This document shows, one piece after another, positions 7,601 to 47,417 of a DNA stretch of 58,331 nt; position 1 is the stretch's first letter; every line of letters begins with the position of its first letter. Below the pieces are notes generated by a model. That model saw nothing but the letters and a program-made list of their open reading frames with translations. It did no database searches and was not told where the DNA came from. The translations under genes were made by a program, and so were the position numbers. The DNA is from Opitutaceae bacterium (GTDB lineage Bacteria; Verrucomicrobiota; Verrucomicrobiia; Opitutales; Opitutaceae): NCBI GenBank assembly GCA_035502155.1, contig DATJUU010000118.1, forward strand, positions 1 through 58,331, given 5' to 3'.

Positions 7601-8328
7601 GCGAGTTGCTCGGGGATGAGCACCCGGTTATAATCCAAGGACTCCCGGGTGGTGCCGAAGCTGCCGAGCTTGGTCTCGATCGATCCCGTATCCTTGAAGA
7701 CCGCCTCGTTGGTGGAATAGTTCGAGATACCCGACGGGCTGCCGACCCCATAAAGGAATGAGTTCGGGCCGCGGGAGATGTCGACCCGGAAGATGTTGAA
7801 GGAATCCCACGGGATCTCGCTCCCGAAATAGTTCCGCGTGTTGTCCATGGGGCTGAGTCCGCGGGCCCGGTTGGTCCCGGTCGGATTCTGGAGCCGTCCG
7901 GCCTCGGCATTGCTGTTGACGCCGTTGCCCCGGAAGGCGACCCCCGAGTAGTTGCCGTACAGACCCGCGACCTCGTTGTTGGTCGTGTAGATAAAGAGGT
8001 CCTGCGCATTGGTGATGCCCACGTCGTCCATCAGCGATTTCGTAATGACTGACAAGGCGGACGGAGTGTCGACCAACTTGGTCGCCACGCGCGCGCCGCC
8101 GAGCGTATCCACCGCCCGGTAGCCCTCGGTCTCCGTCGTCACGGTGAAGGGATCCATCTTCACCACCTGCTCCTCTTCGGCGGCGGCCGGCGCTGCGGGC
8201 GGCGGGTTTGCCGCCGTCTGGCAGAGCGCCCGCGGCGTAATCACCAAAGCAAAAAGGGCAACGGCATACGACATGCCCGCCCGTGCAATACGGATGGTCT
8301 GGGCCTTGGGCCCGTTGTCACTGTTCAT
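4654..8328 (-). CDS. TonB-dependent outer-membrane receptor, paralog 1 (~1224 aa)
   Basis: Plug-domain motif DTLGGARVATKLVDTPSALSVITKSLMDDVGITNAQDLFIYTTNNEVAG. Long beta-barrel rich in N/Y/G/T. C-terminal aromatic residue (...FELSSRFMF). Start re-set to the ATG at 8328 (MNSDNGPKAQ...signal peptide...ALCQTA), which aligns with the paralog start MNTKHDPQER. Confidence 0.85.
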   Translation of the reverse strand: MNSDNGPKAQTIRIARAGMSYAVALFALVITPRALCQTAANPPPAAPAAAEEEQVVKMDPFTVTTETEGYRAVDTLGGARVATKLVDTPSALSVITKSLMDDVGITNAQDLFIYTTNNEVAGLYGNYSGVAFRGNGVNSNAEAGRLQNPTGTNRARGLSPMDNTRNYFGSEIPWDSFNIFRVDISRGPNSFLYGVGSPSGISNYSTNEAVFKDTGSIETKLGSFGTTRESLDYNRVLIPEQLAVRLDVLNDDTQYQQKPAFNHSQRAYLALRYDPKTLDTAASHMKIEANAEVGRVRSNNPRELPPMDFISGYFDGVVNKKGYDPFSYPTGSQLGGVGTFSGLSPWVNAQDYHYLWPGPNAAFVYDGRTGALLQSMTTLNSVQSVAGGTVGSLPQAAPMYISGFTNYAITVNNRDPSKYVGAFAGSIYYNNKSLTDPSIFDFYNKLIDGPNKQEWQNWKSFNVTAEESLLNGRVSLQGIVDHQEFDQGQVSMWGYTEPFITVDLDAYSIMYPPNSFPGLAVKNPNEGRPLVAGDFGSGDNSAHYIHDNYQITANWDLRVEDYAPKSPLASFLGHHSITALVGDYRTRIENRTWAGNATDVAFANAMGDPLGLISANRGVDWVSYLGPSMVNATSPAGLNLSNVANYLQPQSGSILNFNATWNPPAGVNPGDPWTDPANGASTQANNLANYRGWTTMPVNVLNWHDDINDLYFSGNQTLQVLQSAAFMYQGHLWDDMIIPEYGWRQDTIKQSSSNAPLDPNTHVASMNYGITGPVTTIRTNSNSYGLTLHLPKSIRGTLPLGTDVSAYYFHGNNESPKVRYDFDDGLLPAETGKTDDYGIQVDTLNGHATVRLTVFKTIDKNAPATSGAADPLGNNGYYLYLLPAWGAADAAAFGQQLAVYPAAPNDWGFTNYPNYGSETATHNIIVAAVADWKANFAKYFPQSFFDAYGLGVNVNAITTGNWVNVYNQPNASPITFPWNIANTGSGKINGSFPIISEDLQSKGYEIEATVRPVSNWDLTFNASKVNTVQTALGASTVAFIQAENAFFSGPAGDLPLWGFWGGAWSKSGSMDNTFLQNIWSGYLLQSAQKGCQQPELSVWNFKAITNYSFKSSALKGFNVGGGVRWASKPILGYAPSKTQDALGNDLWYTDVTKPLYGKIDEHVDAWIGYQTKLSSKLDWRLQLNVHNVGEKPHLVPVSVEPDGTPAHQRIEMGQTFELSSRFMF

Positions 8329-8513
8329 ACGTGTTAGTTGGAGTCTGGGTTGCGTGGCACCGCCCAAGAACGCCAAAACGCCCACGAGGGGTACCACAGA
8401 GGGGTACGAGAGGGCTGGAGGCACTCTCGTCATGAACTGGACTGCGCCCATTCGAGCGCTATCGGGAGGCCCCTTTCAATTCCCGGATGGGGTCTCCGCC
8501 GCTTTTTTCACGC

Positions 8514-11700: not shown

Positions 11701-12548
11701 TTGGCATGATTGAACGCCGGCTGCTGCCGGTACTGGGTGTCGTCATTCAACAGGTCGACCCGGATCGCCAGTTCTCCCGGCACGATCGATCGGTTGAGAT
11801 CCAAGGATTCGCGGGTGCTGCCGAAGCTGCCGTAGCGGGCCTCGACCGTGCCTTGGTTCTTGTCGATGATCGCCTCGTTGGTCGAATAATTCGCGATGCC
11901 CGACGGGCTGCCGACGCCGAACAGGAAGGAATTCGGGCCGCGGGAGATGTCGACCCGGCTGATGTTGAAGGAATCCCAGGGAATCTCGCTCGAGAAATAG
12001 TTCCGCGTGTTGTCCATCGGCGTGAGCCCGCGCGCCCGGTTGATGGAATTCGGATTCAGGAGCCGCGCGGCCTCCGCGTTGCTGCTGACGCCGATGCCCC
12101 GGGAGGCGACCCCCGAGAAATTGCCGTTCAGGCCCGCGACCTCGGTGTCGGTCGTGTAGATCAGGAGTTCCTGCGCATTGGTGATCCCCAGGTCGTCCAG
12201 GAAGGACTTGGTGATGACCGACAAAGCCGAGGGCGTGTCGACCAGCTTGGTCGCGACGCGCGCGCCGCCGAGTGTGTCCACCGCCTGGTAGCCCTCCGTT
12301 TCCGCCGTCACGGTGAAGGGATTCATGTGGACCACCTGTTCTTGCGATTCCGCCGCAGGGGTCGCGACCGGAGCCTGAGCCGGCGTACTCGTCTGATCCG
12401 CCGTGGCGCTTGGCGCTGGAGCGGCCTGGCCGAGCACTCTCGGACCAATCGCACTGGCAAAAAGGGCGGCTGCGCAGAACGCACCCGCCCCACGGAGACG
12501 GCACGGCAGGATATGCCGCCGCTCTTGTGGGTCATGCTTGGTGTTCAT
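8760..12548 (-). CDS. TonB-dependent outer-membrane receptor, paralog 2 (~1262 aa)
   Basis: Collinear with paralog 1 along its whole length, with the same plug motif (DTLGGARVATKLVDTPSALSVITKSFLDDLGITNAQELLIYTTDTEVAG) and the same C-terminus (FEISNKFMF). ATG at 12548 followed by a signal peptide. Confidence 0.85.
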   Translation of the reverse strand: MNTKHDPQERRHILPCRLRGAGAFCAAALFASAIGPRVLGQAAPAPSATADQTSTPAQAPVATPAAESQEQVVHMNPFTVTAETEGYQAVDTLGGARVATKLVDTPSALSVITKSFLDDLGITNAQELLIYTTDTEVAGLNGNFSGVASRGIGVSSNAEAARLLNPNSINRARGLTPMDNTRNYFSSEIPWDSFNISRVDISRGPNSFLFGVGSPSGIANYSTNEAIIDKNQGTVEARYGSFGSTRESLDLNRSIVPGELAIRVDLLNDDTQYRQQPAFNHAKRAYGALRYDPKALSTDSSHFSIKLNAESGQVRSNNPRELPPMDFITGYFSGGGLNKGGYDPFLYNTNQQLVGAGSFSGSGAAPAAPSLNPWVNAQDYHYLWPGPNAAYVYDAKTGALLQSSTTFNGAVGANGLGIGGFPQAAPLYVSGFANYAKTVNYRNSNLFPGAYAGTVTYNDKSLTDPSIFNFYDSLIDGPNKQEWQNWNAFNVTMEETLLNGRIAIQGVVDHQEFDEGSVSIFGYTEPFISVDLDAYQIKYPSWLPGLAVTNPNEGRPFAASDFGSGAGSTKYIHDNYQLTANGDLRFDDFLAKSPLTEFLGHHSFTALGSEYRTQEEDRHWDTYATDTTFAQLMGSGTGSISGNRVPDWVAYLGPSLAGVSSPSGLSLGNIANLVAPTSGTTSYFSNTWTATGVNPSDPWANPSPYRTGTETQSDNPANYKGWTTTPVNMLNWHDNINDLYTSGNKTEQTLKSAALMYQGHLWDDIIIPEWGWRRDTITQRSSNAPLDPNTQVASMNYGISGSDTKFSTNSTSWGLTLHLPKSIRGKLPLGTDVSAYYFRGNNETPKVRYAFDASLLPAETGRTDDYGIQVDTLNGHATLRLTYFKTLDKNGQAGSGAADPLGNNGYYLYLLPAWIAGDAASNAIGLAGQDQTGSSWFWNWANNAGVSGVGYGDYSSSAFLNSSQTVAEKAAVASLQQNFAKYFPQSFFDAYGLGVNVAAVTAGNWANVFNNPAAFPYPWVVSNTGGGKINGSFPIISQDIESKGYELEATVRPVSNWDLTFNASKVNAVQTALGAADSAFIQQEYAFFSSPAGQMPLWGGTNAVGGRVYDYFIQNIWSAYQLQTAQTGTAQPELRQWNFKAVTNYTFKNGRFKGFNVGGGVRWASKPILGYGISQVTDPLGNKSWIMDVNKPLYGKIDEHADLWIGYQHKLTSKVDWRIQLNIRNLTEKAHLVPVSVEPDGSWAQMRIEEGQTFEISNKFMF

Positions 12549-12729
12549 ACTAGTTTTGGAGTCTTGGTTCGGAGCGAAACCATTCGGGGTTGCCTGGTGT
12601 CTCAAACTAAGATGAGACGCTCACTGGATTAGCCCACAGGCTCGAAAACAACGGCTAACGGCACGATTGGTGGATCGTCGCCGATGCGGCTTCAATTCCG
12701 GGATTGCCATCGGAGCCCTTTTTTCACCG

Positions 12730-18414: not shown

Positions 18415-19143
18415 TCAGCTGCCGTCCTTGAAATTGAACGTCTGCACCGCCTTCACCAGCGCCGCCCGGCCCCGGGACGTGGGCGGCGTGAATTTCCACT
18501 GGCTCAACGCGGCGATGGCCAGGCTGCCGAGCTCAAGGTTTTCGCCCGGCGCCAGACTGGGCAGGCGCACCGCGCCGGTCTCGTCGATGTAGAACTCGAC
18601 GTTGACCGATCCGCGCACACCCTGCTCCGCCAGCGCGCGGGGATAGGCCGGCGCCACCGTGCGGAGCGGCGCGGGCACCCGGTCCAGCTCCGCCGGCACG
18701 CAGGCGCGGAACCGGTACCGGCCGTCGAGCAGCCGCATCGTCTGGATTTCGGCCAGTTCGGCGAGGTTCACCGACGACACCACCACGCCCTGCGCGGTGA
18801 ACTGGAACGTGAGCTCGGCGATTGCGCCCATGGGCTCGCCGCGCAGCCGCGCGGGTTCGAACTTCCACTCCTTGATCGCGTCCACCGCCGCGGTGGCGAA
18901 CTCCGGCCGGGAGTAGCCGGTCACCAGCCACTCGGTGAGCGCACCCTTGCGGTCGACGCTGATGACGACGCGCGCCTCTCCCTGCGTCACGGCCAGCTGC
19001 ATCAGGCGCGGCGGGAATACCGGGTCGCTGGACTCCACGACCTTCAACGACTGCCAGTCCGGCCGGTCGACGGCGGCCGGCGCGGGGGCGCTGCCTGCCA
19101 GCAGCAACCCGATTCCAAGAGCGAGCATAGGGGATGTTCTCAT
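18415..19143 (-). CDS. Secreted protein with two tandem TonB C-terminal domains
   Basis: The track ORF (601 aa) is over-extended. The ATG at 19143 gives MRTSPMLALGIGLLLAGSAPAPA (signal peptide). Two TonB_C-like units follow: PVFPPRLMQLAVTQGEARVVISVDRKGALTEW...AIKEWKFEPA and APAYPRALAEQGVRGSVNVEFYIDETGAV...ALSQWKFTPP. Confidence 0.7.
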   Translation of the reverse strand: MRTSPMLALGIGLLLAGSAPAPAAVDRPDWQSLKVVESSDPVFPPRLMQLAVTQGEARVVISVDRKGALTEWLVTGYSRPEFATAAVDAIKEWKFEPARLRGEPMGAIAELTFQFTAQGVVVSSVNLAELAEIQTMRLLDGRYRFRACVPAELDRVPAPLRTVAPAYPRALAEQGVRGSVNVEFYIDETGAVRLPSLAPGENLELGSLAIAALSQWKFTPPTSRGRAALVKAVQTFNFKDGS

Positions 19144-19226
19144 GGTCAAATGCGGTTGCCCGGCACAACACCGGCCGGCGCCGCATCCCTTCAGCGCGCG
19201 CCTCACCCGCCGTCGCGGCTCCTCGC

Positions 19227-24800: not shown

Positions 24801-25201
24801 ACGTCGACCGGCATGAAGGTTGAGGGCCGGTGGTGCTGGGGCCAGTTGAACTCGATCCCGCCGCTGATCCACGGCCCCGCCAGGCCGACCAGCGCCGGTT
24901 TGATCACCGCCTGGTAATAGAGCAGGTCGTAGCCGTTGGTCTTGTCAGTGATCCGGTGGATGCGCCCGCCCAGCTCCGGCAGGATCATCACGCGCAGGAA
25001 TTCGTTTTCCAGCCACACCGCGTCCCACCGCCGCGGCACCGGTTTTTCCGCGATCCGGTCCGTGAACGGCAGCGGGTAGACGCTCCCGCTCGAGCCCTGG
25101 TAGACCCGTTTTTCCAGGAACATCGGATTCCGGTCCGGAGCGCACGGTTCGTAGGTCGGCAGGACGACGGCGGCGCGGCGCACGGAGACGGGGGCGGGCA
25201 T
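21827..25201 (-). CDS. DUF5107-like N-terminal domain + TPR-repeat protein (1124 aa), function unknown
   Basis: ATG at 25201. The N-terminus (YPLPFTDRI...WLENEFLRVMILPELGGRIHRITDKTNGYDLLYYQAVIKPALVGLAGPWISGGIEFNWPQHHRP) matches my recollection of the DUF5107 family. The C-terminal half consists of TPR-like Ala/Arg/Leu-rich repeats. Confidence 0.7.
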   Translation of the reverse strand: MPAPVSVRRAAVVLPTYEPCAPDRNPMFLEKRVYQGSSGSVYPLPFTDRIAEKPVPRRWDAVWLENEFLRVMILPELGGRIHRITDKTNGYDLLYYQAVIKPALVGLAGPWISGGIEFNWPQHHRPSTFMPVDVAVERHPGGAATVWLSEHDPLARLKGMHGACLHPGRAYLELKVRAYNRTADVQTFLWWANAATRVHEQYQSFFPPDVYYVADHAKRAMSAYPRCAGRYYGVDYAARGRAGVPAGEKPRRFVPPHCDPELKTQNPKLPSYRADDLSWYANIPVPTSYMCMGSREDFFGGYDHAAQAGIIHVADHRIAPGKKQWTWGNHAFGYAWDRNLTDADARGVHWPYIELMAGVYTDNQPDFSFLQPGETKHWSQYWYPIRAIGPAQHATLDAAVSLRLAAGTARVGVAVTAPQRRAVVRLEIRGRPVARWTRDLTPDRPLVAGARMPRGGRAADLTLRVLAAGGRELIRYQPRPPPHGPVPPPAGEPPAPEATADADELYLTGLHLEQYRHATRAPEAYWREALRRDPGDARCNLALGRWHLRRGEWADAERHLRASIARLTARNPNPAEGETFYQLGRCLRHQGRDAEAGEAFAKATWNQAWQAAGYHALAEIDCGRGDWTAALDHLERALAVNAGNLRARDLQGIVLRRLGRGAEADARLAATLALDPLDWWARHLRGAALTCDTQVRLDLALDCARAGLVAEALDILDGAKPEPPSGTAPLVGYYCGWLLERQGKAGAARRARAAAAKAPPDYCFPARLEEIAVLETAIAADPRDARAPFYLGNLLYARRRHQEAIACWERAVRLEPANAVAWRNLGIGYFNIQRRPARARTAYERAFRADPADARLLFERDQLWKRLGVAPARRRRELERHRPLVETRDDLSVELCALYNQTGRPARAREILARRRFQPWEGGEGQALGQHTRAHLLLGRAALRRGDAAGARKWFEAALAAPENLGEARHLLANQSDVHFWLGEAGAAAGDLRSARVHWTAAATFRGDFQEMSVRTFSEQTYFSALAWRRLGRTARARRLLRGLLGHARRLARTPARIDYFATSLPTMLLFDDDLPARRITTALVLEAQARLGLGQRTAAQRLLARILRRDPSHALAADLAADR

Positions 25202-25341
25202 GGGCGGCGGGATCCGCCTACCCTAGGCGCAAAGCGCCGCTTTCTGCAACGGGCGAAGCGCCGGTCCGCCCCAAACGCGCTCGACGCCCGCCCGGAAAAG
25301 TCGCTTCATGTCCGCCGAAACGTCTTAATGTCTGCCGACCC

Positions 25342-25417
25342 GTCCCTGTAGCTCAACAGGATAGAGCAGCGGTTTCCTAAACCGCCGATCCCGGTTCAAG
25401 TCCGGGCGGGGATACCA
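25342..25417 (+). tRNA. tRNA-Arg (anticodon CCT)
   Basis: Manual cloverleaf, 76 nt with encoded CCA. Acceptor GTCCCTG/CGGGGAT with two G.U pairs. D-arm GCTC-AACAGGATA-GAGC. Anticodon arm GCGGT-TTCCTAA-ACCGC. 4-nt variable loop. T-arm CCCGG-TTCAAGT-CCGGG. Discriminator A. Confidence 0.88.
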
Positions 25418-25437
25418 GCGGGTCGGTCGCCGCCTCG

Positions 25438-26664
25438 TCACGCCGGCACGCGGCGCAGGATCTCCAAGCAGGCCCGGCCGTTGTGGTAGGGACACTTCCA
25501 CGGGCCGATCTTGTAGCCGTCGCGAAACTCCGGATAGGGCGGCTTCGGCCGGCCCGCGCGATCCACCCCCGGCCGCCACTCGCCCAGATCGCGGTCGATG
25601 ATCCGGTCCTCGATGAACCGCCAGCTGCGCAGCGCCGCCGCCTGAAACCGCGCCTCGCCGGTCCGCGCGTGGGCGTTGAGGAACCCGACCACCGCCTCCG
25701 CCTGCGGCCACCATTTTTTGTCCGCGTCGGTCACCCGTCCGTCCCAGCCCTCGTGGAACACGCCGCCGTCCGCATCCATGCCGTGGGCCAGGACCGCGTC
25801 GGCCAGCGCCCGCGCCACCGCCTGCACCCGCCCCGCGAGGGCGGGATCACCCAGCAGGTCGGCCGCCTCGCCCAGCAGCCAGCTCGCCTCGATGTCGTGA
25901 CCGAACGACACGACGCCGTCGGCCGACTGCCAGTCGGCGGCGAAGAACAGCCGGCAGTGCGGGGCGGGATGCGCGGCGTAGACGCGGTCGAGAAACAGCG
26001 TCACCAACTCGGTCAGGCGCGCGCGCAGCCGGGCCTCGGGCCAAACCCGCAGCAGCGCGGTGTACGCCTCGAGCACGTGCAGCAGCGTGTTCATCGACTT
26101 CGGCGTGTTGGGCTCGACCTCGCTCAGGCGCAGGTCGGCCAGCGGCTCCCAGCGGCCGGTGCACGCCTCGAAATAGCCGCCGTGCCGCGGGTCGTGCAGG
26201 TGGCGCTCCAGCAGTGCGAAGAGCTCCTGTGCCCGCGCCAGGGCCCCCGCCTCGCCGGTGGCCGCGTGCCACTCCGCCAGGCCGTAGATCGCGAAGGCCT
26301 GGGCGTAACCCTGTTTCTTGTCCGAGACCACCCGGCCGGCCGCGTCGAGGCTCCAGTACACCCCGCCCCGGGACGCGTCCCGGAACGGTCCGAGCAGCTG
26401 GGCCCGCGCCTGCTCCGCCGCCCGGCGCCAGGCGGGATCAGGCCCGAGCTGTCGCAGCGCCGCCGCGAAAGTCCAGAGCACCCGCGCGCAGATCACGACG
26501 TGGCGCGGCACGTCGTCCACCCGTTCGCCGCGGCAGGTGACCATGCCGGTGAGCCGCCCGTCGGCCTCGAAGCCGTGCCGCGCCCAATAGGGCAGGATGT
26601 CGCCGGTGAGCTCGGCGTGCGCGGCCCGGCGCAGGTCGGCGAGGGAGTCGAGGAGGCCCGGCAT
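25438..26664 (-). CDS. AGE-family (N-acylglucosamine 2-epimerase / cellobiose-mannose epimerase-isomerase-like) protein
   Basis: ATG at 26664, 408 aa. Alpha/alpha-barrel epimerase motifs: ILPYWARHG, GGVYWSLDAAGRVVSDKKQGYAQAFAIYGLAE, WWPQAEAVVG and KCPYHNGRACLE. Confidence 0.8.
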   Translation of the reverse strand: MPGLLDSLADLRRAAHAELTGDILPYWARHGFEADGRLTGMVTCRGERVDDVPRHVVICARVLWTFAAALRQLGPDPAWRRAAEQARAQLLGPFRDASRGGVYWSLDAAGRVVSDKKQGYAQAFAIYGLAEWHAATGEAGALARAQELFALLERHLHDPRHGGYFEACTGRWEPLADLRLSEVEPNTPKSMNTLLHVLEAYTALLRVWPEARLRARLTELVTLFLDRVYAAHPAPHCRLFFAADWQSADGVVSFGHDIEASWLLGEAADLLGDPALAGRVQAVARALADAVLAHGMDADGGVFHEGWDGRVTDADKKWWPQAEAVVGFLNAHARTGEARFQAAALRSWRFIEDRIIDRDLGEWRPGVDRAGRPKPPYPEFRDGYKIGPWKCPYHNGRACLEILRRVPA

Positions 26665-26721
26665 GGGCCGAAGTTATACCGGGGCCGCCACTGAATTGGA
26701 AAGGTCGAAGTCCTCCATGCC

Positions 26722-27327
26722 TCACGCGGCGCGCCGGCGGCCCCGCCACCCTATCGCCAGATACGCAATCCCGGCGCAGGCGACCCCGCCGAGGTGGGCC
26801 ATCGGCACCACGCGCACGTCCGGGTCAAACCGCGCGAACAGCGGCGCCGGTCCGCCCGCCTCCAGCGCGATCTTCACCGCGACCAGCACCAGCACCGACG
26901 GCCAGAACCACCAAGGCGCCGCCCGGTCGCGGCGCCATTGCACCAGCGCCAGCAGCACCAGCACGCCCGTCGCCACTCCGGAAAGCCCGGCGTAGCGCTC
27001 GAGCGATGGCTCGGCCCCGAGCAGCAAGACCGAGATTGCCGGCGGCGCCAGCAGGTAGAACCAGCGCGCCGCCCGCGGCCGGATCCACTCCAGCCACCCG
27101 CCCGCTGCGACGAACACTGCGAGATCCAGCCACAGATGGCTGGAGCTGTAGTGCACCAGATGCCCGGTCCACAGCCGCCAGACCTGGCCGGCCAGGATTG
27201 CCGGCCGCTCGTAGATCCAGGCGCCGGCCAGCGGCGGCCAGACATAGGCCAGCCCCGCTGCCGCCGTGATCGCCAGCGTTGCCGCGAGCCGGGTCAGCGC
27301 CGGGGCCGGCTTTTTTGCCGCATCCAT
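26722..27327 (-). CDS. rrtA: Rhombosortase-like rhomboid-family intramembrane serine protease
   Basis: ATG at 27327, 201 aa, about 6 TM segments. WRLWTGHLVHYSSSHLWLDL (rhomboid TM2 motif), GLSGVATG (catalytic GxSG) and AHLGGVACAG (catalytic His). The small size and lack of extra domains fit rhombosortase. The 5' end overlaps the 3' end of the NHL gene by 34 nt. Confidence 0.7.
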   Translation of the reverse strand: MDAAKKPAPALTRLAATLAITAAAGLAYVWPPLAGAWIYERPAILAGQVWRLWTGHLVHYSSSHLWLDLAVFVAAGGWLEWIRPRAARWFYLLAPPAISVLLLGAEPSLERYAGLSGVATGVLVLLALVQWRRDRAAPWWFWPSVLVLVAVKIALEAGGPAPLFARFDPDVRVVPMAHLGGVACAGIAYLAIGWRGRRRAA

Positions 27328-30300
27328 CGCGCCGCCCCCAGCAGCGCCAGCGCGCCCGCCAGCCAGGGATCGACGGTTCCGCCGCCGCCGCTGGAGGAGC
27401 CGCCGGCCGACGCGGACGCCGAGCCGCTGCCCGAACTCGAGGAGTTCGACGCGCTGCTGGTGGCGGAGGCCGCCGTCAGCGCCATCGTCGTCACCGCGCC
27501 GCTCGTCGAGATCTTGCGGATCGCGGCGTTGCCCGTGTCCGCCACGTACAGGTTGCCGCTGCCGTCGGCCACGATGCCGCGCGGCTGATTGAAGAGCGCG
27601 GTGGTGCCCATGCCGTCGCCCAGGCCCGCGGTGCCGGCCACGCCCGCCACCGTGCTCACGACGCCGGCCGGCGTGACGCGGCGGATCGTGGCGTTGCCGG
27701 TGTCGGCGACATAGAGATTGCCGCTGGCGTCGAGCGTCGCGCCCACCGGCTGGTTGAACAGGCCGTACTGGCCCGTGCCGTCGTTGGTCCCGCTCAGCCC
27801 GGCCGAGCCGGCGAGCGTGCTCACCGCCGCGGCCGGCGTGATCTTGCGGATCGTGTCGTTGTAGGTGTCGGCCACGTAGAGATTGCCCGCGCCGTCCACC
27901 GTCACCCCGCTGGGATAATTGAACTGGGCCGCCGTCCCGGTGCCGTCGGCGTCGCCCTTGGCCGCGGCCGCACCCGCCACCGTGGTGACCGCGCCCGCCG
28001 CCGTGACCTTGCGGATCGTGTCGGTGAAGGCGTCCGCCACGTAGAGATTGCCCGCGCCGTCGACGGTGAGGCCGACCGGATAATTGAACTGCGCCGCGGT
28101 GCCCGTGCCGTCGACGTTGCCGCGGCTGCCCGCGGCCCCGGCGAGGGTCGAGACGGTGCCGGCCGTGGTGATCTTGCGGATCGTGGCGTTGCCGGTGTCG
28201 GCGACATAGACGTTGCCGGCGGAATCCACCGCCACGCCGTTCGGCTGGTTAAACAGGGCGCTCATGCCGTCCTGCATGCCGGCGACGCCGGTCGAGCCGG
28301 CCAGCGTGCTCACCGTGCCGCCGGCGGTGATCTTCCGGATCACATTGGCCGAGGCATCGGCCACGTACAGGTTGCCGGCGGTGTCCGCGGCGAGGGCGGA
28401 GGGATAAACCAGCAACCCTCCGGAGCCCGCGCCGCTCGACCCCGAGCCGGAGGAACTCGAACTGGAGCTGGACGAGGAGCTCGAACTGCCGGAGCCGGAG
28501 CTGCCGGACCCGCTGCCGCTCGAACTGCCGGAGCCGCTGCTGCCGGAGCTGTCGCCCGACCCGGAGGAGCCCGAGCCGGTCGTGGAGTTGGTGCTCGATG
28601 ACGGCACGCCCTTGCGGATCGTGTTGTTGAAGGTATCGGAGACGTAGAGATTGCCGGCGCTGTCCACCGCCACCCCGCTCGGCGTGTTGAACAGCGCCCC
28701 GCTGCCCGTGCCGTCCACGCTGCCGATGACGCCGTGCATGCCGGCCACGGTGGTGACCACCCCCGCCGGCGTGATCCGGCGGATCGTGTCCCCGTTGTCC
28801 TCCGCGACGAAAATGTTGCCCGCGTTGTCCACGGTCAGCGCCGTGGGCGAGTCGAACCACGCGTTGGTGCCCGTTCCGTCCCGGTCGCCGGCGTTCAGTG
28901 CCGAGCCGGCCACCGTGGTCACAACCAGGTTGGGCGTGATCTTGCGGATGACGTTGTTGCCCGTGTCGGCCACGTAGACGTTGCCCGTGATGTCGGTCGC
29001 GACTCCGCCCGGTGCCCGGAAGCTGGCGCCGCTGCCGGTGCCGTCGATCGCGCCGGCGATCCCCGCGATGCCCGCGAAAGTCGTCACGATCCCATCCTGG
29101 GTGACCTTGCGAATCACGCTGTTGGCGGTGTCCGCCACGAAGATGTTGCCGGAGGGATCGACCGCCACGGACTTGGGCAGGAAGAATGCCGCGTCCGAGG
29201 CCGTGCCGTCGACGCTCCCCCGGACATTCGCCGCGCCGGCCAGCGTCGTCACCACCCCGCCCGGGGCGATCTTGCGGATCGTGGCGTTGTAGGCGTCGGC
29301 CACGAAGATGTTGCCGTTGCTGTCCAGCGCCACGCCCACCGGCAGGAAGAATGTCGCCAGGTTGCCCGTGCCGTCGGCGGCGCCCTCGCTGCCGGGCGAT
29401 CCCGCCACCGTGCTGACCGTGCCGTCGGGCGCGATCATGCGCACCGTGGCGTTGAACGTGTCGCCGACATACAGGTTGCCCGCGTGGTCCACCGCGATCC
29501 CGTTGGGTTCGTTGAACCGGGCGTTGCGGCCGACGCCATCGTCAGCGCCCTTGGTGCCGACAAACGCCGACCCGGCGAGCGTGGTCACCACGCCGGCGGG
29601 CGTGACCTCGCGGATGATGTTGTTCTGGGAATCCGAGACGTAGAGGTTGCCCGCGCTGTCCAGCGAGATGCCCTGGGGATAGCTAAAGCGGGCGGCGCTG
29701 CCCGTGCCGTCACCGAATCCGACGCTGCCCACCTGGCCGGCCAGCGTGCTGACCACGCCCGCCGAGGTGATCTTGCGGATCGTGAAATTGTTCGTGTCAG
29801 ACACATAGACGTTGCCCGCGCTGTCCACCGCCACGCCGCCGGGAGAGTCAAACTCGGCCGCCGTCCCGGCGCCGTCCACCGAGCCCCGCGTGCCCGCCAT
29901 GCCCGCGAAGGTCGAGACGGCGCCGCCCGCGGTCACTTTCCGGATCGTGTGGTTGCCGGTGTCGGCCACGTAGACCGTGCCTGCGCTGTCCACCGCCACG
30001 GCGGTGGGGCCGGAGAAGGTCGCCACCGTGCCGCCGGCGTCGAGCGTGCCGGTGGTCCCGGCGGAGCCGGCCAGGGTCGTGACCACGCCCCCGGGGGTGA
30101 CCTTGCGGATCGTGTTGTTGCTCGTGTCGGCCACATAGGCGTTGCCGGAACTATCGACCGTGATCCCCGTGGGCGAGCTGAACAACGCCCCAGTGCCCGT
30201 GCCATCCGTGCTGCCGGCGGGACCGGAGACGCCGGCGATCGTGGTCACGACGCCGGCCGGCGAGACCAGGCGGATCAGCTGGTTGCCCGGGTCCGCGACC

Positions 30301-32729
30301 CAGATGTTCCCGGACGGATCCACCGCCACGCCGCCGGGCGAATTGAACCGGGCCGAGCTGCCCGTGCCGTCCGTGCTGCCCGGCGTGCCGGGCAGGCCCG
30401 CCAGGGTCGTGACGAGGCCGGCGGGGGTGAGCTTGCGGATGGTGTCATTGAAGGTGTCGGCCACGTAGACGTTGCCGCTCGCGTCGACCGCCGTGGCGCG
30501 CGGCGAACTGAAGCGGGCGGCGCTGCCGATGCCGTCGGCGCTGCCGCGGCTGCTGGCCGTGCCGGCCAGCGTGGTGACGACGCCGGCGGAGGTCACCTGG
30601 CGCACCGCGTTGTTGTAGGTGTCCGCCACGTAGGCGACCCCGGAGCCGTCCACCGCGATGCCCTCCGGCTGGTTGAGCAGGGCGCCGGCGCCGGTGCCGT
30701 CGGCGAGGCCGCGCACGCCCGCCTCGCCCGCGATCGTGCTGACCACGCCCGCCGGGGTGATGAAGCGGACCTCGCTGTTGTTCGTATCCGCGACAAAAAT
30801 GTTCCCGGCGCCGTCCACCGCCACGCCCATCGGGCCATCAAACCGGGCGAGGATCGCCTGGCCGTCCCGGCTGAGGTTGCTCCGGTCGGCGCCCGAACCC
30901 GCAACGGTGGTCACCACCGCTCCCGGCGCGATCTTCCGGATGCAGTTGTTGCCCGTGTCCGCCACGTAGAGGTTGCCGGAGCTGTCGCGCCACATGCCGG
31001 CCGGATAATTGAACTGCGCGGCGCTGCCCGTGCCGTCGGCCCGGCCCGCGTTGCTCGGCGCTCCCGCGACCGTGGTCACCACGCCGGCGGCGGTCACCTT
31101 CCGGATGGTGTTGTTGCCGTTGTCGGCCACATAGATCGTGCCCGAGCTGTCCACCGCCACCCCGGTGGGAAAATTGAACTTCGCCGCCGTGCCCGTCCCG
31201 TCCACCGCGCCCTTGATCCCCACGGTGCCGGCGAGCGTCGAGGACACACCAGCCGGGGTGATCTTCCGGATCGTGTTGCTGCCGGTGTCCGACACGTATA
31301 CGTTGCCCCCGCTGTCCACCGCAATGCCCTGCGGGGAATTGAACAGGATCGCCGTGCCGGTGCCGTCGGTGGAGCCGATGCCGCCCGCATAGCCCGCAAA
31401 GGTGGTCACCACCCCCGCCGAGGTGATCTTGCGCACGTCATGGCTGGAGGTGTCGGTCACGTACAGGTTGCCGCCGCTGTCCACCGCCACCCCGATCGGG
31501 CTGTTGAACGTCGCCTTGGTGCCGGTGCCATCGTCGATCCCGGCCGTGCCCGTCGAACCGGCCAGCGTTGTCACCACGCCCCCCGAGGTGACCTTGCGGA
31601 TCGTGTTGTTGCTGCTGTCCGTCACGTAAATGTTGCCCGCGCTGTCGAGCGCCAGTGAGGTCGGCGCGCCAAACCGCGCGGCCGTGCCCGTGCCGTCGGT
31701 GCTGCCGGCGAAACCCGCGGCGCCCGCCAGGGTGGTCACCACCCCCGCCGACGTGATCCTGCGGATGACGGCGTTGGAGGCGTCCGCCACGAAGACGTTG
31801 CCGCTCGCGTCCGACGCCACGTAACCCGGCCCGAAGAACAGGGCGCCTGTCCCCGTGCCGTCCTGCGTGCCGCGCACGCCCGCGGTTCCGGCCAGAGTGC
31901 TCACCACCCCCGCCGGCGTGATCTTGCGGATCGTCTGGTTGCCGGAGTCCCCGACGTAGATGTTGCCCGCGCTGTCGAGGGCGACCCCGCGGGGCTGGTT
32001 GAAGCGGGCGACGCTGCCGGTGCCGTCGGTGGAGCCCTGGCTCGGCAGGACCCCGACCCCGGCATAGGTGGTGACCACGCCCGCCGAAGTCACCTTGCGG
32101 ATCGTGTTGGCCCCGGCGTCCGAAACGAAAACGTTGCCGCTGCCGTCCACCGCGACGCCGAACGGAAGGACGAAGCTCGCCGCGGTGCCGGTGCCGTCCG
32201 ACACGCCCACGACATCCGGCGAACCGGCCAGCGTCGTCACCACGCCCGCAGGCGTGACCTTGCGGACCGTGCCGTTGCCGGAGTCCGTCACGAAGAAATT
32301 GCCCGCCCCGTCCATCGCAATGCCGGTCGGATCCAGAAAGCGCGCCGCGGTCCCGGTGCCGTCGGCCGTGCCGGTGAGTGTCGGCGACCCCGCAAACGTC
32401 GTGGCCACGCCTGCCGGGGTGATCTTCCGGATGGTGCTGTTGTTGGTGTCGACCAGATAGGTGTTGCCCTGGCTGTCCACCACCAGGCTGGCGGGGTGGT
32501 TGAACTGGGCGGCGCTGCCGGTGCCGTCGACGCTGCCGATGCCCGGCAACCCGGCCACCGTCGTGAACGTGTAGGGCGTGTAGGTGGTGGTATAGGTCGG
32601 CGGGTTCGAATTGGTCTGCGCCAGGGCCAGCGCCGGCGACAGCCCCGCCGCGGCCAGCAGGCCGCGCCAGGCGGGGAGGTGGAAGCTTGCGCGCCAGACG
32701 GACGCGACGCGCCAAACACTGACATTCAT
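27294..32729 (-). CDS. Giant secreted NHL-repeat protein (1811 aa, 30 blades) with Gly-rich/hydrophobic/basic C-terminal sorting signal
   Basis: ATG at 32729 and a signal peptide (...SPALALAQT). 30 units of about 55 aa of the form DGTG.AA.FN.P.GVAVDSAGN.YVAD..N.TIRK.T.AGVVTTLAG. Internal Ser/Gly linker. The tail is ...SSSGGGGTVDPWLAGALALLGAARWMRQKSRPRR. Confidence 0.88.
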   Translation of the reverse strand: MNVSVWRVASVWRASFHLPAWRGLLAAAGLSPALALAQTNSNPPTYTTTYTPYTFTTVAGLPGIGSVDGTGSAAQFNHPASLVVDSQGNTYLVDTNNSTIRKITPAGVATTFAGSPTLTGTADGTGTAARFLDPTGIAMDGAGNFFVTDSGNGTVRKVTPAGVVTTLAGSPDVVGVSDGTGTAASFVLPFGVAVDGSGNVFVSDAGANTIRKVTSAGVVTTYAGVGVLPSQGSTDGTGSVARFNQPRGVALDSAGNIYVGDSGNQTIRKITPAGVVSTLAGTAGVRGTQDGTGTGALFFGPGYVASDASGNVFVADASNAVIRRITSAGVVTTLAGAAGFAGSTDGTGTAARFGAPTSLALDSAGNIYVTDSSNNTIRKVTSGGVVTTLAGSTGTAGIDDGTGTKATFNSPIGVAVDSGGNLYVTDTSSHDVRKITSAGVVTTFAGYAGGIGSTDGTGTAILFNSPQGIAVDSGGNVYVSDTGSNTIRKITPAGVSSTLAGTVGIKGAVDGTGTAAKFNFPTGVAVDSSGTIYVADNGNNTIRKVTAAGVVTTVAGAPSNAGRADGTGSAAQFNYPAGMWRDSSGNLYVADTGNNCIRKIAPGAVVTTVAGSGADRSNLSRDGQAILARFDGPMGVAVDGAGNIFVADTNNSEVRFITPAGVVSTIAGEAGVRGLADGTGAGALLNQPEGIAVDGSGVAYVADTYNNAVRQVTSAGVVTTLAGTASSRGSADGIGSAARFSSPRATAVDASGNVYVADTFNDTIRKLTPAGLVTTLAGLPGTPGSTDGTGSSARFNSPGGVAVDPSGNIWVADPGNQLIRLVSPAGVVTTIAGVSGPAGSTDGTGTGALFSSPTGITVDSSGNAYVADTSNNTIRKVTPGGVVTTLAGSAGTTGTLDAGGTVATFSGPTAVAVDSAGTVYVADTGNHTIRKVTAGGAVSTFAGMAGTRGSVDGAGTAAEFDSPGGVAVDSAGNVYVSDTNNFTIRKITSAGVVSTLAGQVGSVGFGDGTGSAARFSYPQGISLDSAGNLYVSDSQNNIIREVTPAGVVTTLAGSAFVGTKGADDGVGRNARFNEPNGIAVDHAGNLYVGDTFNATVRMIAPDGTVSTVAGSPGSEGAADGTGNLATFFLPVGVALDSNGNIFVADAYNATIRKIAPGGVVTTLAGAANVRGSVDGTASDAAFFLPKSVAVDPSGNIFVADTANSVIRKVTQDGIVTTFAGIAGIAGAIDGTGSGASFRAPGGVATDITGNVYVADTGNNVIRKITPNLVVTTVAGSALNAGDRDGTGTNAWFDSPTALTVDNAGNIFVAEDNGDTIRRITPAGVVTTVAGMHGVIGSVDGTGSGALFNTPSGVAVDSAGNLYVSDTFNNTIRKGVPSSSTNSTTGSGSSGSGDSSGSSGSGSSSGSGSGSSGSGSSSSSSSSSSSSSGSGSSGAGSGGLLVYPSALAADTAGNLYVADASANVIRKITAGGTVSTLAGSTGVAGMQDGMSALFNQPNGVAVDSAGNVYVADTGNATIRKITTAGTVSTLAGAAGSRGNVDGTGTAAQFNYPVGLTVDGAGNLYVADAFTDTIRKVTAAGAVTTVAGAAAAKGDADGTGTAAQFNYPSGVTVDGAGNLYVADTYNDTIRKITPAAAVSTLAGSAGLSGTNDGTGQYGLFNQPVGATLDASGNLYVADTGNATIRRVTPAGVVSTVAGVAGTAGLGDGMGTTALFNQPRGIVADGSGNLYVADTGNAAIRKISTSGAVTTMALTAASATSSASNSSSSGSGSASASAGGSSSGGGGTVDPWLAGALALLGAARWMRQKSRPRR
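27420..32565 (-). repeat. Coding tandem repeat array (~165-nt period, 30 diverged units)
   Basis: This is the DNA counterpart of the NHL blades. The recurring ...GTGATCTTGCGGATCGTG... (TIRKIT on the minus strand) is visible throughout the array. Confidence 0.8.
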
Positions 32730-33051
32730 ACGGTGGAGGTGTCGGGTACCCGGGGGATCCCTAACAGACGTGGTTTCTGATGATTTGTTTCATCTTTTGG
32801 CCCCCCTGCCAATGTGCAAGGCAATCCAAGGCTGCGGGATTCGGCGCGCGCGGAGCAGGGGGACCGAGGCATGGTGACAAGGGGCCCGGGATACGCGACT
32901 CCCCGCCCGGTTTCAACCTCGATTCCGCCATTTTTTTACCCCCGCCAAAGGCGGACGGACGGCGGGTTCAAAACCCGGTCCCGTCGCACAAAATGCGCGT
33001 TGACAACGCCGCCCCGCGGCGCAGCCTCACCCCTCCCTGAATTTCGCCGCC

Positions 33052-33246
33052 ATGACCACACCGGAAACCACGCCGCGCAGCCTCACGCCGCCGGAAGTCC
33101 CCTTCACCAACCCGCACATGTTCAACCGCTGCGTGACGGACACCGGCAAGATCCTGCCCCGCAAGTACACCGGCCTCAGCTCGAAGCACCAGCGCGCGGT
33201 CACCAAGACCCTCAAGCGCTCCCGCGCGATGCTGCTGGCCCAGTAA
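33052..33246 (+). CDS. rpsR: 30S ribosomal protein S18
   Basis: ATG at 33052, 64 aa. The core GKILPRKYTGLSSKHQRAVTKTLKRSRAMLL matches the conserved S18 core. Confidence 0.9.
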   Translation: MTTPETTPRSLTPPEVPFTNPHMFNRCVTDTGKILPRKYTGLSSKHQRAVTKTLKRSRAMLLAQ

Positions 33247-33274
33247 GGCGCCGCACCGCCGCCCGCCCCCGCCG

Positions 33275-33301
33275 GCCGGAGCTTCCGCTCCGGCCTTTTT
33301 T
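33275..33301 (+). terminator. Rho-independent terminator after rpsR
   Basis: GCCGGAGC-TTCC-GCTCCGGC (8-bp stem) followed by CTTTTTT. Confidence 0.8.
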
Positions 33302-33316
33302 GTGCTCAGCTGCGCC

Positions 33317-34309
33317 ATGGCCGCCACGATTTACCGCGGCACCCCCGCGAATTTGCGCCGTCTCGCCCGCGTCCTCCGCCGCGGCGGGCTCGTCGCCGTG
33401 CCGACCGAAACCGTCTACGGCCTCGCCGCCTGCGCGCTGCGCGCGGACGCCTGCCGGCGCATCTTCCGCGCCAAGGGCCGCCCGGCCCACGATCCGCTGA
33501 TCGTTCACGTGGCCGACCTGCCCATGCTCGAGCGCGTGGCGCGGTCCAACCCCGCCGTCGCCCGCCTGGCCCGGGCGTTTTGGCCGGGGCCGCTGACGCT
33601 GGTGCTGGCCCGCCGGCCCGCGGTGCCGGCGTTGGTGACCGCCGGGCTGCCCAGCGTGGCCGTGCGCATGCCGGCCCACCCACTGCTGCGGCGCCTGCTG
33701 CGCCTCTGCGACGAGCCGCTGGCTGCCCCGAGCGCCAATCCGTTCGGCTACCTCAGCCCCACCACCGCCGCCCACGTGCGGGAAAGCCTGGGCACACGCA
33801 TCCGGCACATTCTGGACGGCGGCCCGTGCCGGCATGGACTGGAGTCGACCATTGTGGACGTCCGCAACCCGCGGCGGCCGGTGTTGTTGCGGCCGGGCGT
33901 GATCACCGCCTCCCAGCTCGCGCGCGTGCTCGGGGTACCCGTGCGGCGCGCGCATCCGCGCCGCGACCCGGCGGCGCCGATGCTGGCGCCGGGCCAGCTG
34001 CCCCGCCATTACAGCCCGCGCCGTCCGCTCCGCCTTCACCGCCGCCTCACCCCGGCCCTGGTCGACCGCGGCGCGCGCCACGAGGCCTGGATCTGTTTCC
34101 GCCGGCCGGCGTGGGCCGCCGGACGGAAAAACGTCTTCTGGCTCAGCGCCGCCGGCGATCCGGCCGCCGCGGGACGAAAGCTGTTTGCACTGCTGCGCCG
34201 GCTGGACCGCGGATCCTGGCGGCGCCTGCATGCCAGCCTGGCGCCGGACGGCGGCCCCGGCGCCGCGATCAACGACCGCCTGCGCCGGGCCGCGGCCCGG
34301 CCGGCCTGA
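33317..34309 (+). CDS. tsaC: L-threonylcarbamoyladenylate synthase (Sua5/YwlC long form)
   Basis: The track ORF starts at a GTG at 33302; I prefer the ATG at 33317. YrdC-domain motifs VAVPTETVYGLAA, KGRPAHDPLIVHV and PSANPFG, followed by a Sua5-type C-terminal domain. Confidence 0.85.
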   Translation: MAATIYRGTPANLRRLARVLRRGGLVAVPTETVYGLAACALRADACRRIFRAKGRPAHDPLIVHVADLPMLERVARSNPAVARLARAFWPGPLTLVLARRPAVPALVTAGLPSVAVRMPAHPLLRRLLRLCDEPLAAPSANPFGYLSPTTAAHVRESLGTRIRHILDGGPCRHGLESTIVDVRNPRRPVLLRPGVITASQLARVLGVPVRRAHPRRDPAAPMLAPGQLPRHYSPRRPLRLHRRLTPALVDRGARHEAWICFRRPAWAAGRKNVFWLSAAGDPAAAGRKLFALLRRLDRGSWRRLHASLAPDGGPGAAINDRLRRAAARPA

Positions 34310-45419: not shown

Positions 45420-46937
45420 TCACGGCGCCCCAGGGCTCGCGACGGCCGGCGCCGCGGGCCGCACCGCCAGCTGGATCGCCGCGGAGGTGGCCCGGCCCAC
45501 CGCGTTGGTGGCCACAAAAGTGTAACTGCCGGCATCGCCGGCCTGCACATTCGTGATCGCCAGCGTGGTGTTGGTCGCGCCAGAAATGTTGCCTGCGTTC
45601 ACCAGATTGACGCCGTTCTTGCGCCACTGGCAGGCTGGGACGGGATTGCCGGCGGCGCTGGCCGAAAACGTCACGGAGTCGCCGGACTGGGCGGTGACGC
45701 CATCCGGAGCGAGAACGATGGCCGGCACCTGGGGCGGCCCGGCGCGAACGAAAACCCGCCGTGGCATGGTGGTGTGCCGCGAGCCGTCGGCGAAGGTGAC
45801 CAGCGCATGATAGACCGAGTAGCCCGGCGCGGTTGGCGTCGTAGTCACCGCCAGGTTGTCTCCATCCACGGGCCGGACGCGTTTCAGCAGCACGTCGCCC
45901 TCGTAGAACTCCACGGACGTCCACGGCGCGACGGGCTGGCCAATGGTGTAGGTGACGCTCGTTCCCCAGTCGACGGGGCCGGTGCCCGGGCCAATCGTGG
46001 CGGTGGGCGTGGCCTTGTGGTAACTCGCAAACGCCCGGAAAATATAGGCGAGCCGGCGGTTCGGCAACCAGCCCGCGCGCGATCGATCCTTCGGGTAAAC
46101 GGCGTACGGAGCGATGTCGGCGAATCCCGCCCGGTAGGAATCCGGATCGGTCAGCCAGCCCTCCGCCGGGTTCAGCGCGCCCAGAGGCACCAGCCCGGCC
46201 ACCGGCGACGCTCCCACCGGGTAGCGCGCGCGAAACATCGCCTCCAGGTACGGATAGAAGAACTCGCGCGCATTGCCGGTATTGTGGGCCACGCCTTCCT
46301 CCTCCATCGCCACCCACAAGGCACCGCGCAGACGATTGCCCGTGAACAAATCCTGGATGACCGCGTGATGACCCCCGTCGTCGCGCTCCCCTGCGATGAG
46401 GACTCCCGGGGTGGCCAATGCCTCCACCGCCGGCCGCAGATGACTGTAGTAGCCGCCCTTGTTGGTCATGAAGGCGATGACCTTGGCCGGACGCTGCGCG
46501 TTCAGCTCGTAGGCCATGTTGCCGCCGTTCGACATGCCCGACGGCAGCCAAGGGGCATTGAAGATCTCCGGGTGTCCGCTCTCCCGGCCCAGCTGCTGCA
46601 GCCCAAATTTGAAGGCGGGCAGTTCCATGGGCGTATCGATGGTGGAAAAATAGCCCCAGTATGCGGTGCCCATCACCGCGCATTCCAGCGAGGTGGCCAA
46701 TGCGACCAGCTCCGGATCGGTCGCCGCGTCGCGGGCATCCAGATTGGCGCCGTTGCCGTAAATGATGATCCCCCGCACCACCGGCACGGAATCGGGGATG
46801 TTCAACCGCAGCGAGCGATTCCCGGCATCGCCGAGCGAAAAATCGTAGACTGCCGCGCGGATGAATGGAACGAAGCAGACGAGCGCCGCACACCCGAGTT
46901 GGCACAGGAGCATGTTCTTTGCGCCGGTGAAGTTCAT
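45420..46937 (-). CDS. Secreted esterase-like protein with C-terminal immunoglobulin (I-set-like) domain
   Basis: The track ORF starts at TTG; I prefer the ATG at 46937 (MNFTGAKNMLLCQLGCAALVCFVPFIRAAV, a signal peptide). Candidate nucleophile elbow GMSNGG. C-terminal Ig pattern SVTFSASAAGNPVPACQWRKNGVNL...AGSYTFVATNAVG. Confidence 0.6.
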   Translation of the reverse strand: MNFTGAKNMLLCQLGCAALVCFVPFIRAAVYDFSLGDAGNRSLRLNIPDSVPVVRGIIIYGNGANLDARDAATDPELVALATSLECAVMGTAYWGYFSTIDTPMELPAFKFGLQQLGRESGHPEIFNAPWLPSGMSNGGNMAYELNAQRPAKVIAFMTNKGGYYSHLRPAVEALATPGVLIAGERDDGGHHAVIQDLFTGNRLRGALWVAMEEEGVAHNTGNAREFFYPYLEAMFRARYPVGASPVAGLVPLGALNPAEGWLTDPDSYRAGFADIAPYAVYPKDRSRAGWLPNRRLAYIFRAFASYHKATPTATIGPGTGPVDWGTSVTYTIGQPVAPWTSVEFYEGDVLLKRVRPVDGDNLAVTTTPTAPGYSVYHALVTFADGSRHTTMPRRVFVRAGPPQVPAIVLAPDGVTAQSGDSVTFSASAAGNPVPACQWRKNGVNLVNAGNISGATNTTLAITNVQAGDAGSYTFVATNAVGRATSAAIQLAVRPAAPAVASPGAP

Positions 46938-47417
46938 GGTCGGCCACTCTGCGCCCAACGGACCTCAGAACTCCCGGCTCAGGCCGAAGCCGGGCAGCCG
47001 GAGCAACAGCGTCAGCGGCAGTTGGGTCTCGATCAGCTGGCCGTTCACGAAGGTGGCTGACGGCGTGTCGTCGCCGTCCCCTTGATGATGGTTGTCGGCG
47101 TTGCCGATGTCCACCAAAGCCGGCAGCGGGCCGTGCTTGAGCCGATTCGTCCGGGGGGGCGCGCAGGTCATGCCGGTGATACGCGGGCGCGAACAGGCCG
47201 TTGTGCGGGCCGTTGATCCGGAAATCGGCAAGCGCGCCGCTGTTCCGGATGCTGGGATGGCAATCGATGTCCGCAATCGGACACCCGGTGTGGTCCTGCC
47301 ATGAAGCGCCCAGATGCCGGTGGGGCGCCGAGGATTCCCGCCCCACCTTTCGGCCCCGCGCCGGCCGGCTCCAACCTGCGGTTGATTTCCCGGGCAACCC
47401 GGCCGAATGTCCTCGCC

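Follow-up and report, generated by a model that had tools for sequence, protein, structure and literature searches.

The window analysed here is a 58,331-nt stretch of DNA from an Opitutaceae bacterium (assembly GCA_035502155.1, contig DATJUU010000118.1, positions 1 to 58,331), and two overlapping genes on its minus strand very probably form a cassette made up of a rhombosortase gene, rrtA, and an adjacent gene for a GlyGly-CTERM cargo protein. The cargo gene (27294..32729, minus strand; stop codon 27294-27296), defined by its open reading frame (ORF) and translation, is predicted to encode a secreted 1811-aa NHL-repeat protein with a sorting tail of the GlyGly-CTERM type. It is followed by rrtA (26722..27327, minus strand), whose 201-aa product is identified as a rhombosortase, a six-transmembrane intramembrane serine protease of the rhomboid family, from its match to the model TIGR03902, its hydrophobic segments and an AlphaFold2 model. 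The cassette adds one more example to a system type already described, from the same bacterial family as Opitutus terrae, and is not a new kind of sorting. The details not met in the literature searched are modest: a cargo of 30 NHL blades, the exchange or loss of cargo beside a stable rrtA gene, a tandem duplication of rrtA in one clade, and a start codon placed within the sorting tail.

The rhombosortase gene and its overlap with the cargo gene

The two genes overlap by 34 nt (27294..27327, minus strand), and the ATG of rrtA (27325-27327) is formed inside Arg-Trp codons of the cargo tail (cGATGg). Third-position G+C is high in both, at 0.93 in the cargo gene and 0.88 in rrtA, as in the real genes of this window, whose overall G+C is about 70%. 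The overlap probably couples translation of the two genes, so that substrate and protease would be produced together. A scan of positions 25200-33300 detected no sigma-70-like promoter; terminator-like sites in the same interval are no more numerous than after shuffling, and the junctions between the cargo gene, rrtA and the downstream epimerase gene are free of them. The initial annotation of this region had given the extent of the overlap exactly, and the tail and the protease motifs WRLWTGHLVH, HLWLD, GLSGV and AHLGG are all present as it quoted them. Its description of a six-transmembrane rhomboid agrees with the six hydrophobic segments found in the 201-aa protein.

RrtA passes the rhombosortase equivalog model TIGR03902 with 111.1 bits (cutoff 84, E=4.6e-32), the match covering profile positions 5-152 of 154. 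The Pfam Rhomboid model gives 38 bits, and models for the rhomboid protease GlpG give 11-21 bits against cutoffs of 250-335; the concern that the protein would score as a generic rhomboid only was not borne out. Residues W49, R50, H55, H58, H63, G113-L-S115-G116 and H177 are invariant in 34 aligned homologues, and the same pattern of conservation is seen across 121 sequences. They include the predicted catalytic Ser115 in the fourth transmembrane segment (GLSGV; codon 26983..26985, minus strand), which aligns to the GLSG of Haemophilus influenzae GlpG, and the predicted catalytic His177 in the sixth (AHLGG; codon 26797..26799, minus strand). The fold is modelled as GlpG-like: the AlphaFold2 model of RrtA has a mean predicted local distance difference test (pLDDT) score of 92.5 and a predicted template modelling (pTM) score of 0.89, and the top matches of a Foldseek search of the PDB with this model are all GlpG structures, with TM-scores (normalised by target length) of 0.63-0.76. 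The closest database proteins come from Opitutaceae and Opitutae, in keeping with the verrucomicrobial host that had been guessed for this DNA, and several already bear the name "rhombosortase" (NCBI) or "rhomboid family GlyGly-CTERM serine protease" (JGI). Profile matches and residue conservation together support classifying the 201-aa protein as a rhombosortase, beyond a generic rhomboid.

The sorting tail and the architecture of the cargo

The putative sorting signal occupies residues 1781-1811 of the cargo (27297..27389, minus strand) and stands directly before the stop codon, where the protein ends in ...SGSGSASASAGGSSSGGGGTVDPWLAGALALLGAARWMRQKSRPRR. A GGGG run is followed by the residues TVDP, the hydrophobic helix WLAGALALLGAA and the basic cluster RWMRQKSRPRR; Gly run, helix and basic cluster give the three-part GlyGly-CTERM architecture at the extreme C-terminus. 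Scored in isolation, the tail passes TIGR03867, a model for the MprA variant of the GlyGly-CTERM tail, with 24.6 and 25.9 bits (cutoff 19.7). The window and 37 loci were searched in six frames with a regular expression for the tail, restricted to open frames of 150 codons or more; every match lay in a frame whose end stands immediately upstream of one rhombosortase gene or a pair of them. Because the pattern is confined to these frames, the association of cargo and protease is more than chance. Motif architecture and model scores thus support a tripartite signal of the GlyGly-CTERM type.

The MYXO-CTERM model (TIGR03901) was rejected as a description of the tail, at 17.8 bits against a cutoff of 20; the tail lacks Cys, and the MYXO-CTERM signature motif requires an invariant Cys (Haft preprint). 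The initial annotation had instead seen a hybrid with PEP-CTERM signals. On such a reading the tail would be PEP-CTERM-like and processed by an exosortase encoded elsewhere, and the neighbouring rhomboid would be incidental. PEP-CTERM systems have been reported in Verrucomicrobiota (bioRxiv 10.1101/2023.06.07.544157), and the V-D-P triplet, the LALLG stretch and the basic cluster bear a superficial likeness to VPEP-helix-RR. The NHL body of the cargo also matches the model for ScyF (NF035926), a PEP-CTERM NHL protein, but this match arises from summed NHL repeats and not from the tail. The PEP-CTERM models (TIGR02595), however, show no match at E<=10 to the window tail or to six orthologous Opitutae tails, and the Pro of "VDP" occurs in one of eight orthologous tails, that of the window itself, the others reading TEA, MDG, IGA, MES, MES, IDG and MET. 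No exosortase was found in Pfam scans of 30 predicted proteins of the 58-kb window, from which two short ORFs near the right-hand end were left out; XrtN, the sole exosortase model matched, gave a chance-level 11.3 bits (cutoff 200). That the overlap with rrtA is conserved also speaks against this reading. We regard exosortase processing as very improbable, and the proposed hybrid character of the tail does not survive these comparisons. Nor is there support for the related proposal that the sorting chemistry may differ from that of described systems, as the same GGG-A-M-[D/G]-W motif is found in betaproteobacterial genes adjoining rhombosortases.

The cargo that carries the GlyGly-CTERM-type tail is built from NHL repeats, with no hydrolase domain detected. 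Its N-terminus resembles a Sec signal by eye, with basic residues followed by GLLAAAGLSPALALA and then Gln, and a signal peptide is predicted, as read from the sequence, at residues 1-37 (...GLLAAAGLSPALALA/QT; 32619..32729, minus strand); this N-terminus is conserved in the orthologues from L002, L003 and L008. The core motif D-x-x-G-N-x-[YFW]-V-x-D then recurs every 55-57 aa, giving 30 blades in total, enough for five six-bladed propellers. Blades 1-24 (residues ~60-1376; 28602..32552, minus strand), located by this core motif, would suffice for four of these, and are separated by a Ser/Gly low-complexity linker of 62 residues (residues 1377-1438; 28416..28601, minus strand) from blades 25-30, the putative fifth propeller (residues ~1439-1751; 27477..28415, minus strand). 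A Ser/Ala/Gly-rich spacer, predicted to be unstructured (residues 1752-1780; 27390..27476, minus strand), precedes the sorting motif. The Pfam NHL model scores 573 bits over 29 stretches of the protein, tandem repeats with a 165-nt period are evident in the DNA of the gene, and the chain has a mass of about 175 kDa.

ScyF is a PEP-CTERM NHL protein of scytonemin biosynthesis with 376 aa. The identification of the cargo as ScyF was rejected: its 411.5 bits against a cutoff of 350 are the sum of 11 partial stretches of a 376-position profile on an 1811-aa repeat protein, so that the cutoff is passed as a repeat artefact, and the cargo is also without a PEP-CTERM tail. In automated annotation pipelines such a repeat-inflated hidden Markov model score could misname the giant cargo ScyF.

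Two observations on immunoglobulin (Ig)-like sequence may be recorded alongside. The cargoes of L006 (5457-10022) and L007 (3-3971) carry Ig-like sequence, recognised by eye, just before their tails (...YTVTVSNGYGSVTSSKATLTVN...), which the window cargo does not have. Elsewhere in the window, a 512-aa protein (45420-46958, minus strand) ends in an Ig I-set domain and has no sorting tail.

Conservation, exchange and loss of the cargo in relatives

Relatives were collected by a scan with the protease in species-representative genomes, which gave 30 loci of up to 20 kb, 13 of them from Opitutae. A giant NHL gene, 54-67% identical to the window cargo at the protein level, lies directly upstream of rrtA in five related species (L002, L003, L006, L007 and L008), and the pair is conserved together with its overlap; the adjacency of protease and tailed NHL cargo expected for relatives is thereby confirmed. 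The complete NHL giants span 1521-1869 codons from stop to stop, the gene of L007 being cut by the contig end. Their tails read GGGGATEAWFIGALALLGMARW..., GGGGAMDGWFVGALLLLGMARW..., GGGGGAIGAWFVGALVLLGAARW..., GGGGAMESWWVGALALLAMARCW... and GGGGAMESWWVAALALLGAARW..., and the consensus of the NHL-type tails is GGGG-[A/T]-x-[D/E/G]-x-W-helix-ARW-basic. Counting all cargo types, a tailed gene stands directly upstream of rrtA in nine of the 12 Opitutae loci for which upstream sequence is available. A protein search with the last propeller and the tail returned more than 7000 generic NHL proteins; among the best 120 of these, the same tail is found in one (P0153), where it reads GGGGAMETWILGALALLGLARW.

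In each of the six relatives with NHL cargo (L012 and the five giants), the start codon of rrtA, either ATG or GTG, falls in the Arg-Trp codons of the cargo, and the overlap measures 34 or 22 nt, as set by the length of the basic cluster. Since the rrtA start is formed inside those codons, the apparent conservation of 'ARW' in the tail may be due in part to the overlapping start codon rather than to the function of the tail.

In another clade of Opitutae the position of the NHL giant is occupied by an M10 metalloprotease with the same kind of tail. This protein, of 420 aa and ending in GGGGGGGAPSVWFLGALSLLVFARRLRPKEE, is found in L009, L010, L013 and L031-L034, where two rhombosortase paralogues stand in tandem after it, each scoring past the TIGR03902 cutoff. 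In L031 (6055-8633) the M10 tail reads GGGGGGG...VWFLGALSLLVFARRLRPKEE and the paralogues have 203 and 210 aa, the first with GLSAV in place of GLSGV. Two rhombosortases were found in one genome only in the survey by Haft & Varghese 2011 (PMC3237569). Tails of the M10 type are without the Arg-Trp pair, and the overlap is of 4 nt only (ATGA). The ORFs immediately upstream in L009, L010 and L013 had been considered as small tailed targets; each is in reality a second rhombosortase paralogue in a stop-to-stop frame, with the M10 cargo farther upstream. A chimeric cargo in L012 (1938-4667) joins an L031-type M10 N-terminal region to one NHL propeller and a tail, the propeller being 53% identical to the last propeller of the window cargo, which suggests domain shuffling among rhombosortase cargoes.

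Several observations weigh against the reading of these genes as a dedicated sorting cassette. In three close Opitutae relatives (L001, L004 and L005), rrtA keeps its syntenic position and lacks a neighbouring cargo, and these loci of 16-20 kb are devoid of tailed genes. TIGR03867 gives 17.2 bits on the full-length cargo, below its cutoff of 19.7. The generic GlyGly-CTERM model TIGR03501 (cutoff 15.5) does not match the window tail and reaches 13.5 bits on the best orthologous tail, from L003. The 58-kb window contains no type II secretion system (T2SS) genes, the experimental literature examined contains no rhombosortase from Verrucomicrobiota, and for the cleavage, lipid attachment and final location of the cargo we infer everything by analogy. 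As to the tail models, a Duganella tail encoded directly upstream of a rhombosortase gene also remains under the TIGR03501 cutoff, with 14.3 bits, and the sensitivity of that model for such tails is therefore limited. When the tail is scored as the initial annotation had proposed, then, the GlyGly-CTERM assignment is upheld by the variant model on the isolated tail and not by the generic model, and the PEP-CTERM models go unmatched; in practice a cargo tail of this kind escapes the generic model in annotation.

The cargo-less loci (L001:3986-6055, L004:8375-10574 and L005:8512-10571, to be compared with 26754-34303 of the window) align with the window at about 77% DNA identity across Sua5-S18 and 72-78% across rrtA, and hold some 210-340 bp in place of the 5.7-kb segment with the NHL gene. 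The cargo gene thus shows presence/absence polymorphism while the protease gene next to it is stable, and because these three loci keep rrtA with no cargo, the protease is not strictly tied to the NHL cargo. The situation foreseen as adverse, the same protease beside unrelated genes in relatives, is realised in part when the M10-type, chimeric and cargo-less loci are taken together; the pairing itself is unbroken, as every tailed gene of the fetched loci abuts rrtA. The three cargo-less loci lend something to the view that the tail acts as a C-terminal membrane anchor which is not cleaved, and that the rhomboid, a protease of general membrane quality control, became its neighbour by chance, as do the genes downstream, which are unrelated and of housekeeping and carbohydrate functions. 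Such a chance neighbourhood is nevertheless exceedingly improbable: RrtA passes the rhombosortase equivalog and remains far below the GlpG cutoffs, every tailed gene in the fetched loci abuts rrtA across cargo types and phyla, and the overlap with its embedded start codon is conserved.

A bolder extension of the cassette reading, which we consider rather unlikely, is that the rhombosortase loci of Opitutae constitute a distinct 'cargo slot' subtype, with exchangeable tailed cargo or none, whose lipid acceptor or destination might differ from the T2SS-dependent route of Vibrio. The slot upstream of rrtA would be filled by an NHL giant of 30 blades, by an M10 metalloprotease or by a fusion of M10 and NHL parts, or would be empty; its tails would follow GGGG-[A/T]-x-[D/E]-x-W, with the rrtA start inside the tail in loci of the NHL type.

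Around the cassette, rrtA is followed on the same strand by a gene of the N-acylglucosamine 2-epimerase family, then by a tRNA-Arg gene (anticodon CCT; 25342-25417, plus strand), the sole Rfam/tRNA feature of the window, and by the gene for a DUF5107/TPR protein. Divergently oriented genes for ribosomal protein S18 and Sua5 lie upstream of the cargo gene, and beyond them genes for a hydrolase, a HAD phosphatase and an SBF transporter. Elsewhere the window encodes TonB-dependent receptor-like proteins, GH31, LacI regulators, GcvP and LutABC-like genes, and no second tailed protein was found in its 58 kb. Two paralogous genes of about 1270 aa with a TonB-dependent-receptor Plug domain (4654-8451 and 8760-12605, minus strand) have near-identical C-termini (...FELSSRFMF and ...FEISNKFMF) and lie in a stretch with a G+C of 0.60-0.64, against about 0.70 elsewhere. 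An ORF at 18415-19180 (minus strand), between the GH31 gene and a sugar transporter gene and overlooked when genes were picked by third-position G+C, appears by eye to encode a secreted protein with two TonB-C-like repeats.

Proposed processing and comparison with known systems

A mechanistic template is available from Vibrio cholerae, the only organism for which proteolytic cleavage of such a tail, by RssP, has been demonstrated (PMC6219818). Cleavage of VesB by RssP leaves the second Gly of the motif exposed, the C-terminus so created bears a moiety containing glycerophosphoethanolamine, and the protein stays on the cell, its surface localisation requiring the T2SS (PMC6219818). According to a further report (PMC13393428), the tail together with RssP suffices for association with the membrane, and translocation across the outer membrane needs a second signal. 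By analogy with VesB and RssP, Sec would export the window cargo, whose C-terminal helix would then keep it in the inner membrane and leave the basic cluster on the cytoplasmic side. RrtA, through Ser115 and His177, would then cleave within the GGGG run, and the new C-terminal Gly would probably be joined to a lipid containing glycerophosphoethanolamine. The five-propeller chain of about 175 kDa may in this way stay bound to the membrane or surface, where it could act as a binding or adhesion protein; crossing of the outer membrane, if it takes place, would call for additional machinery, for instance a T2SS.

It is also conceivable, though unlikely, that RrtA merely sheds the NHL protein into the periplasm or medium in soluble form, neither re-attached to a lipid nor anchored at the surface. 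Regulated release was discussed by Haft & Varghese 2011 (PMC3237569), a 2023 preprint by Haft notes that endopeptidase activity alone has so far been described for rhombosortase and calls the enzyme 'possibly' responsible for lipid transfer in Vibrio, and VesC is eventually released from cells (PMC13393428). Against this, VesB, from the sole system analysed chemically, keeps both its glycerophosphoethanolamine-containing moiety and its attachment to the cell (PMC6219818), and the sufficiency of tail and RssP for membrane association (PMC13393428) also argues for anchoring. No sequence feature distinguishes shedding from lipid attachment. The overlapping pair forms a minimal system for asking if cleavage and lipid attachment need RrtA alone, and if anchoring of this sort works for so large a multi-propeller protein. 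More broadly, a pairing of rhombosortase and GlyGly-CTERM protein that has been tested experimentally only in Vibrio extends to Opitutaceae, and here in its simplest form, one protease beside the sole tailed gene visible in the window. That cargo is swapped or dropped while the protease gene beside it persists adds a small point on how sorting systems acquire clients.

Compared with E. coli and H. influenzae GlpG, RrtA shares the six-transmembrane fold, the WR loop motif, the GxSG serine and the histidine of the sixth transmembrane segment. It differs in having no cytoplasmic domain, in scoring far below the GlpG equivalog cutoffs, and in that the asparagine position of the GlpG HxxxN motif reads HLWLD. 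With Vibrio RssP/VesB the cassette has in common the protease family, the three-part tail and an unstructured Ser/Gly-rich linker, and that system is the expected mechanistic template; the linker described for VesB in PMC13393428 is comparable to the Ser/Ala/Gly spacer of the window cargo. In Vibrio, by contrast, one protease serves six unlinked targets, mostly hydrolases, whereas here there is one adjacent target made of NHL repeats only, and in the Opitutae tail the Gly run is separated from the helix by four residues, usually with one acidic, and a Trp.

Essentially the same tail motif is seen in the neighbours of betaproteobacterial rhombosortases (Duganella, Rugamonas and Ralstonia-type), where GGGAM[G/D]W-helix-basic corresponds to the GGGGAM[D/E]xW of Opitutae. 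The proteases of these loci are 31-40% identical to RrtA of the window, and each target, of about 300 aa, likewise has its gene immediately upstream of that for the rhombosortase; the cargo is small and bears no relation to that of the window, and the phylum is another one. The 'rhombotarget lipoprotein' model TIGR04179 gives a very weak 11 bits (cutoff 150) on the betaproteobacterial tail alone.

The nearest precedent is the work of Haft & Varghese 2011 (PMC3237569), who defined rhombosortase and GlyGly-CTERM and described dedicated adjacent pairs, among them that of Opitutus terrae PB90-1, in which a single target (GI 182412621) stands next to a rhombosortase (GI 182412622). The novelty implied by the initial annotation for a one-protease, one-substrate arrangement was accordingly overstated, as such pairs had been published in 2011. 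Haft & Varghese 2011 (PMC3237569) make no mention of NHL or propeller cargo, and a literature search returned no paper combining "GlyGly-CTERM" with "NHL". The published pairs and the present one agree in a TIGR03902-class protease beside a protein with Gly motif, helix and basic tail, and O. terrae belongs to the same family; the order of target and then protease also matches the consecutive GI numbers in Table 3 of PMC3237569. What sets the window cassette apart from those pairs is its 1811-aa cargo with 30 NHL blades and its 34-nt overlap, in which the start codon of the protease gene lies inside the tail of the protein that it would process.

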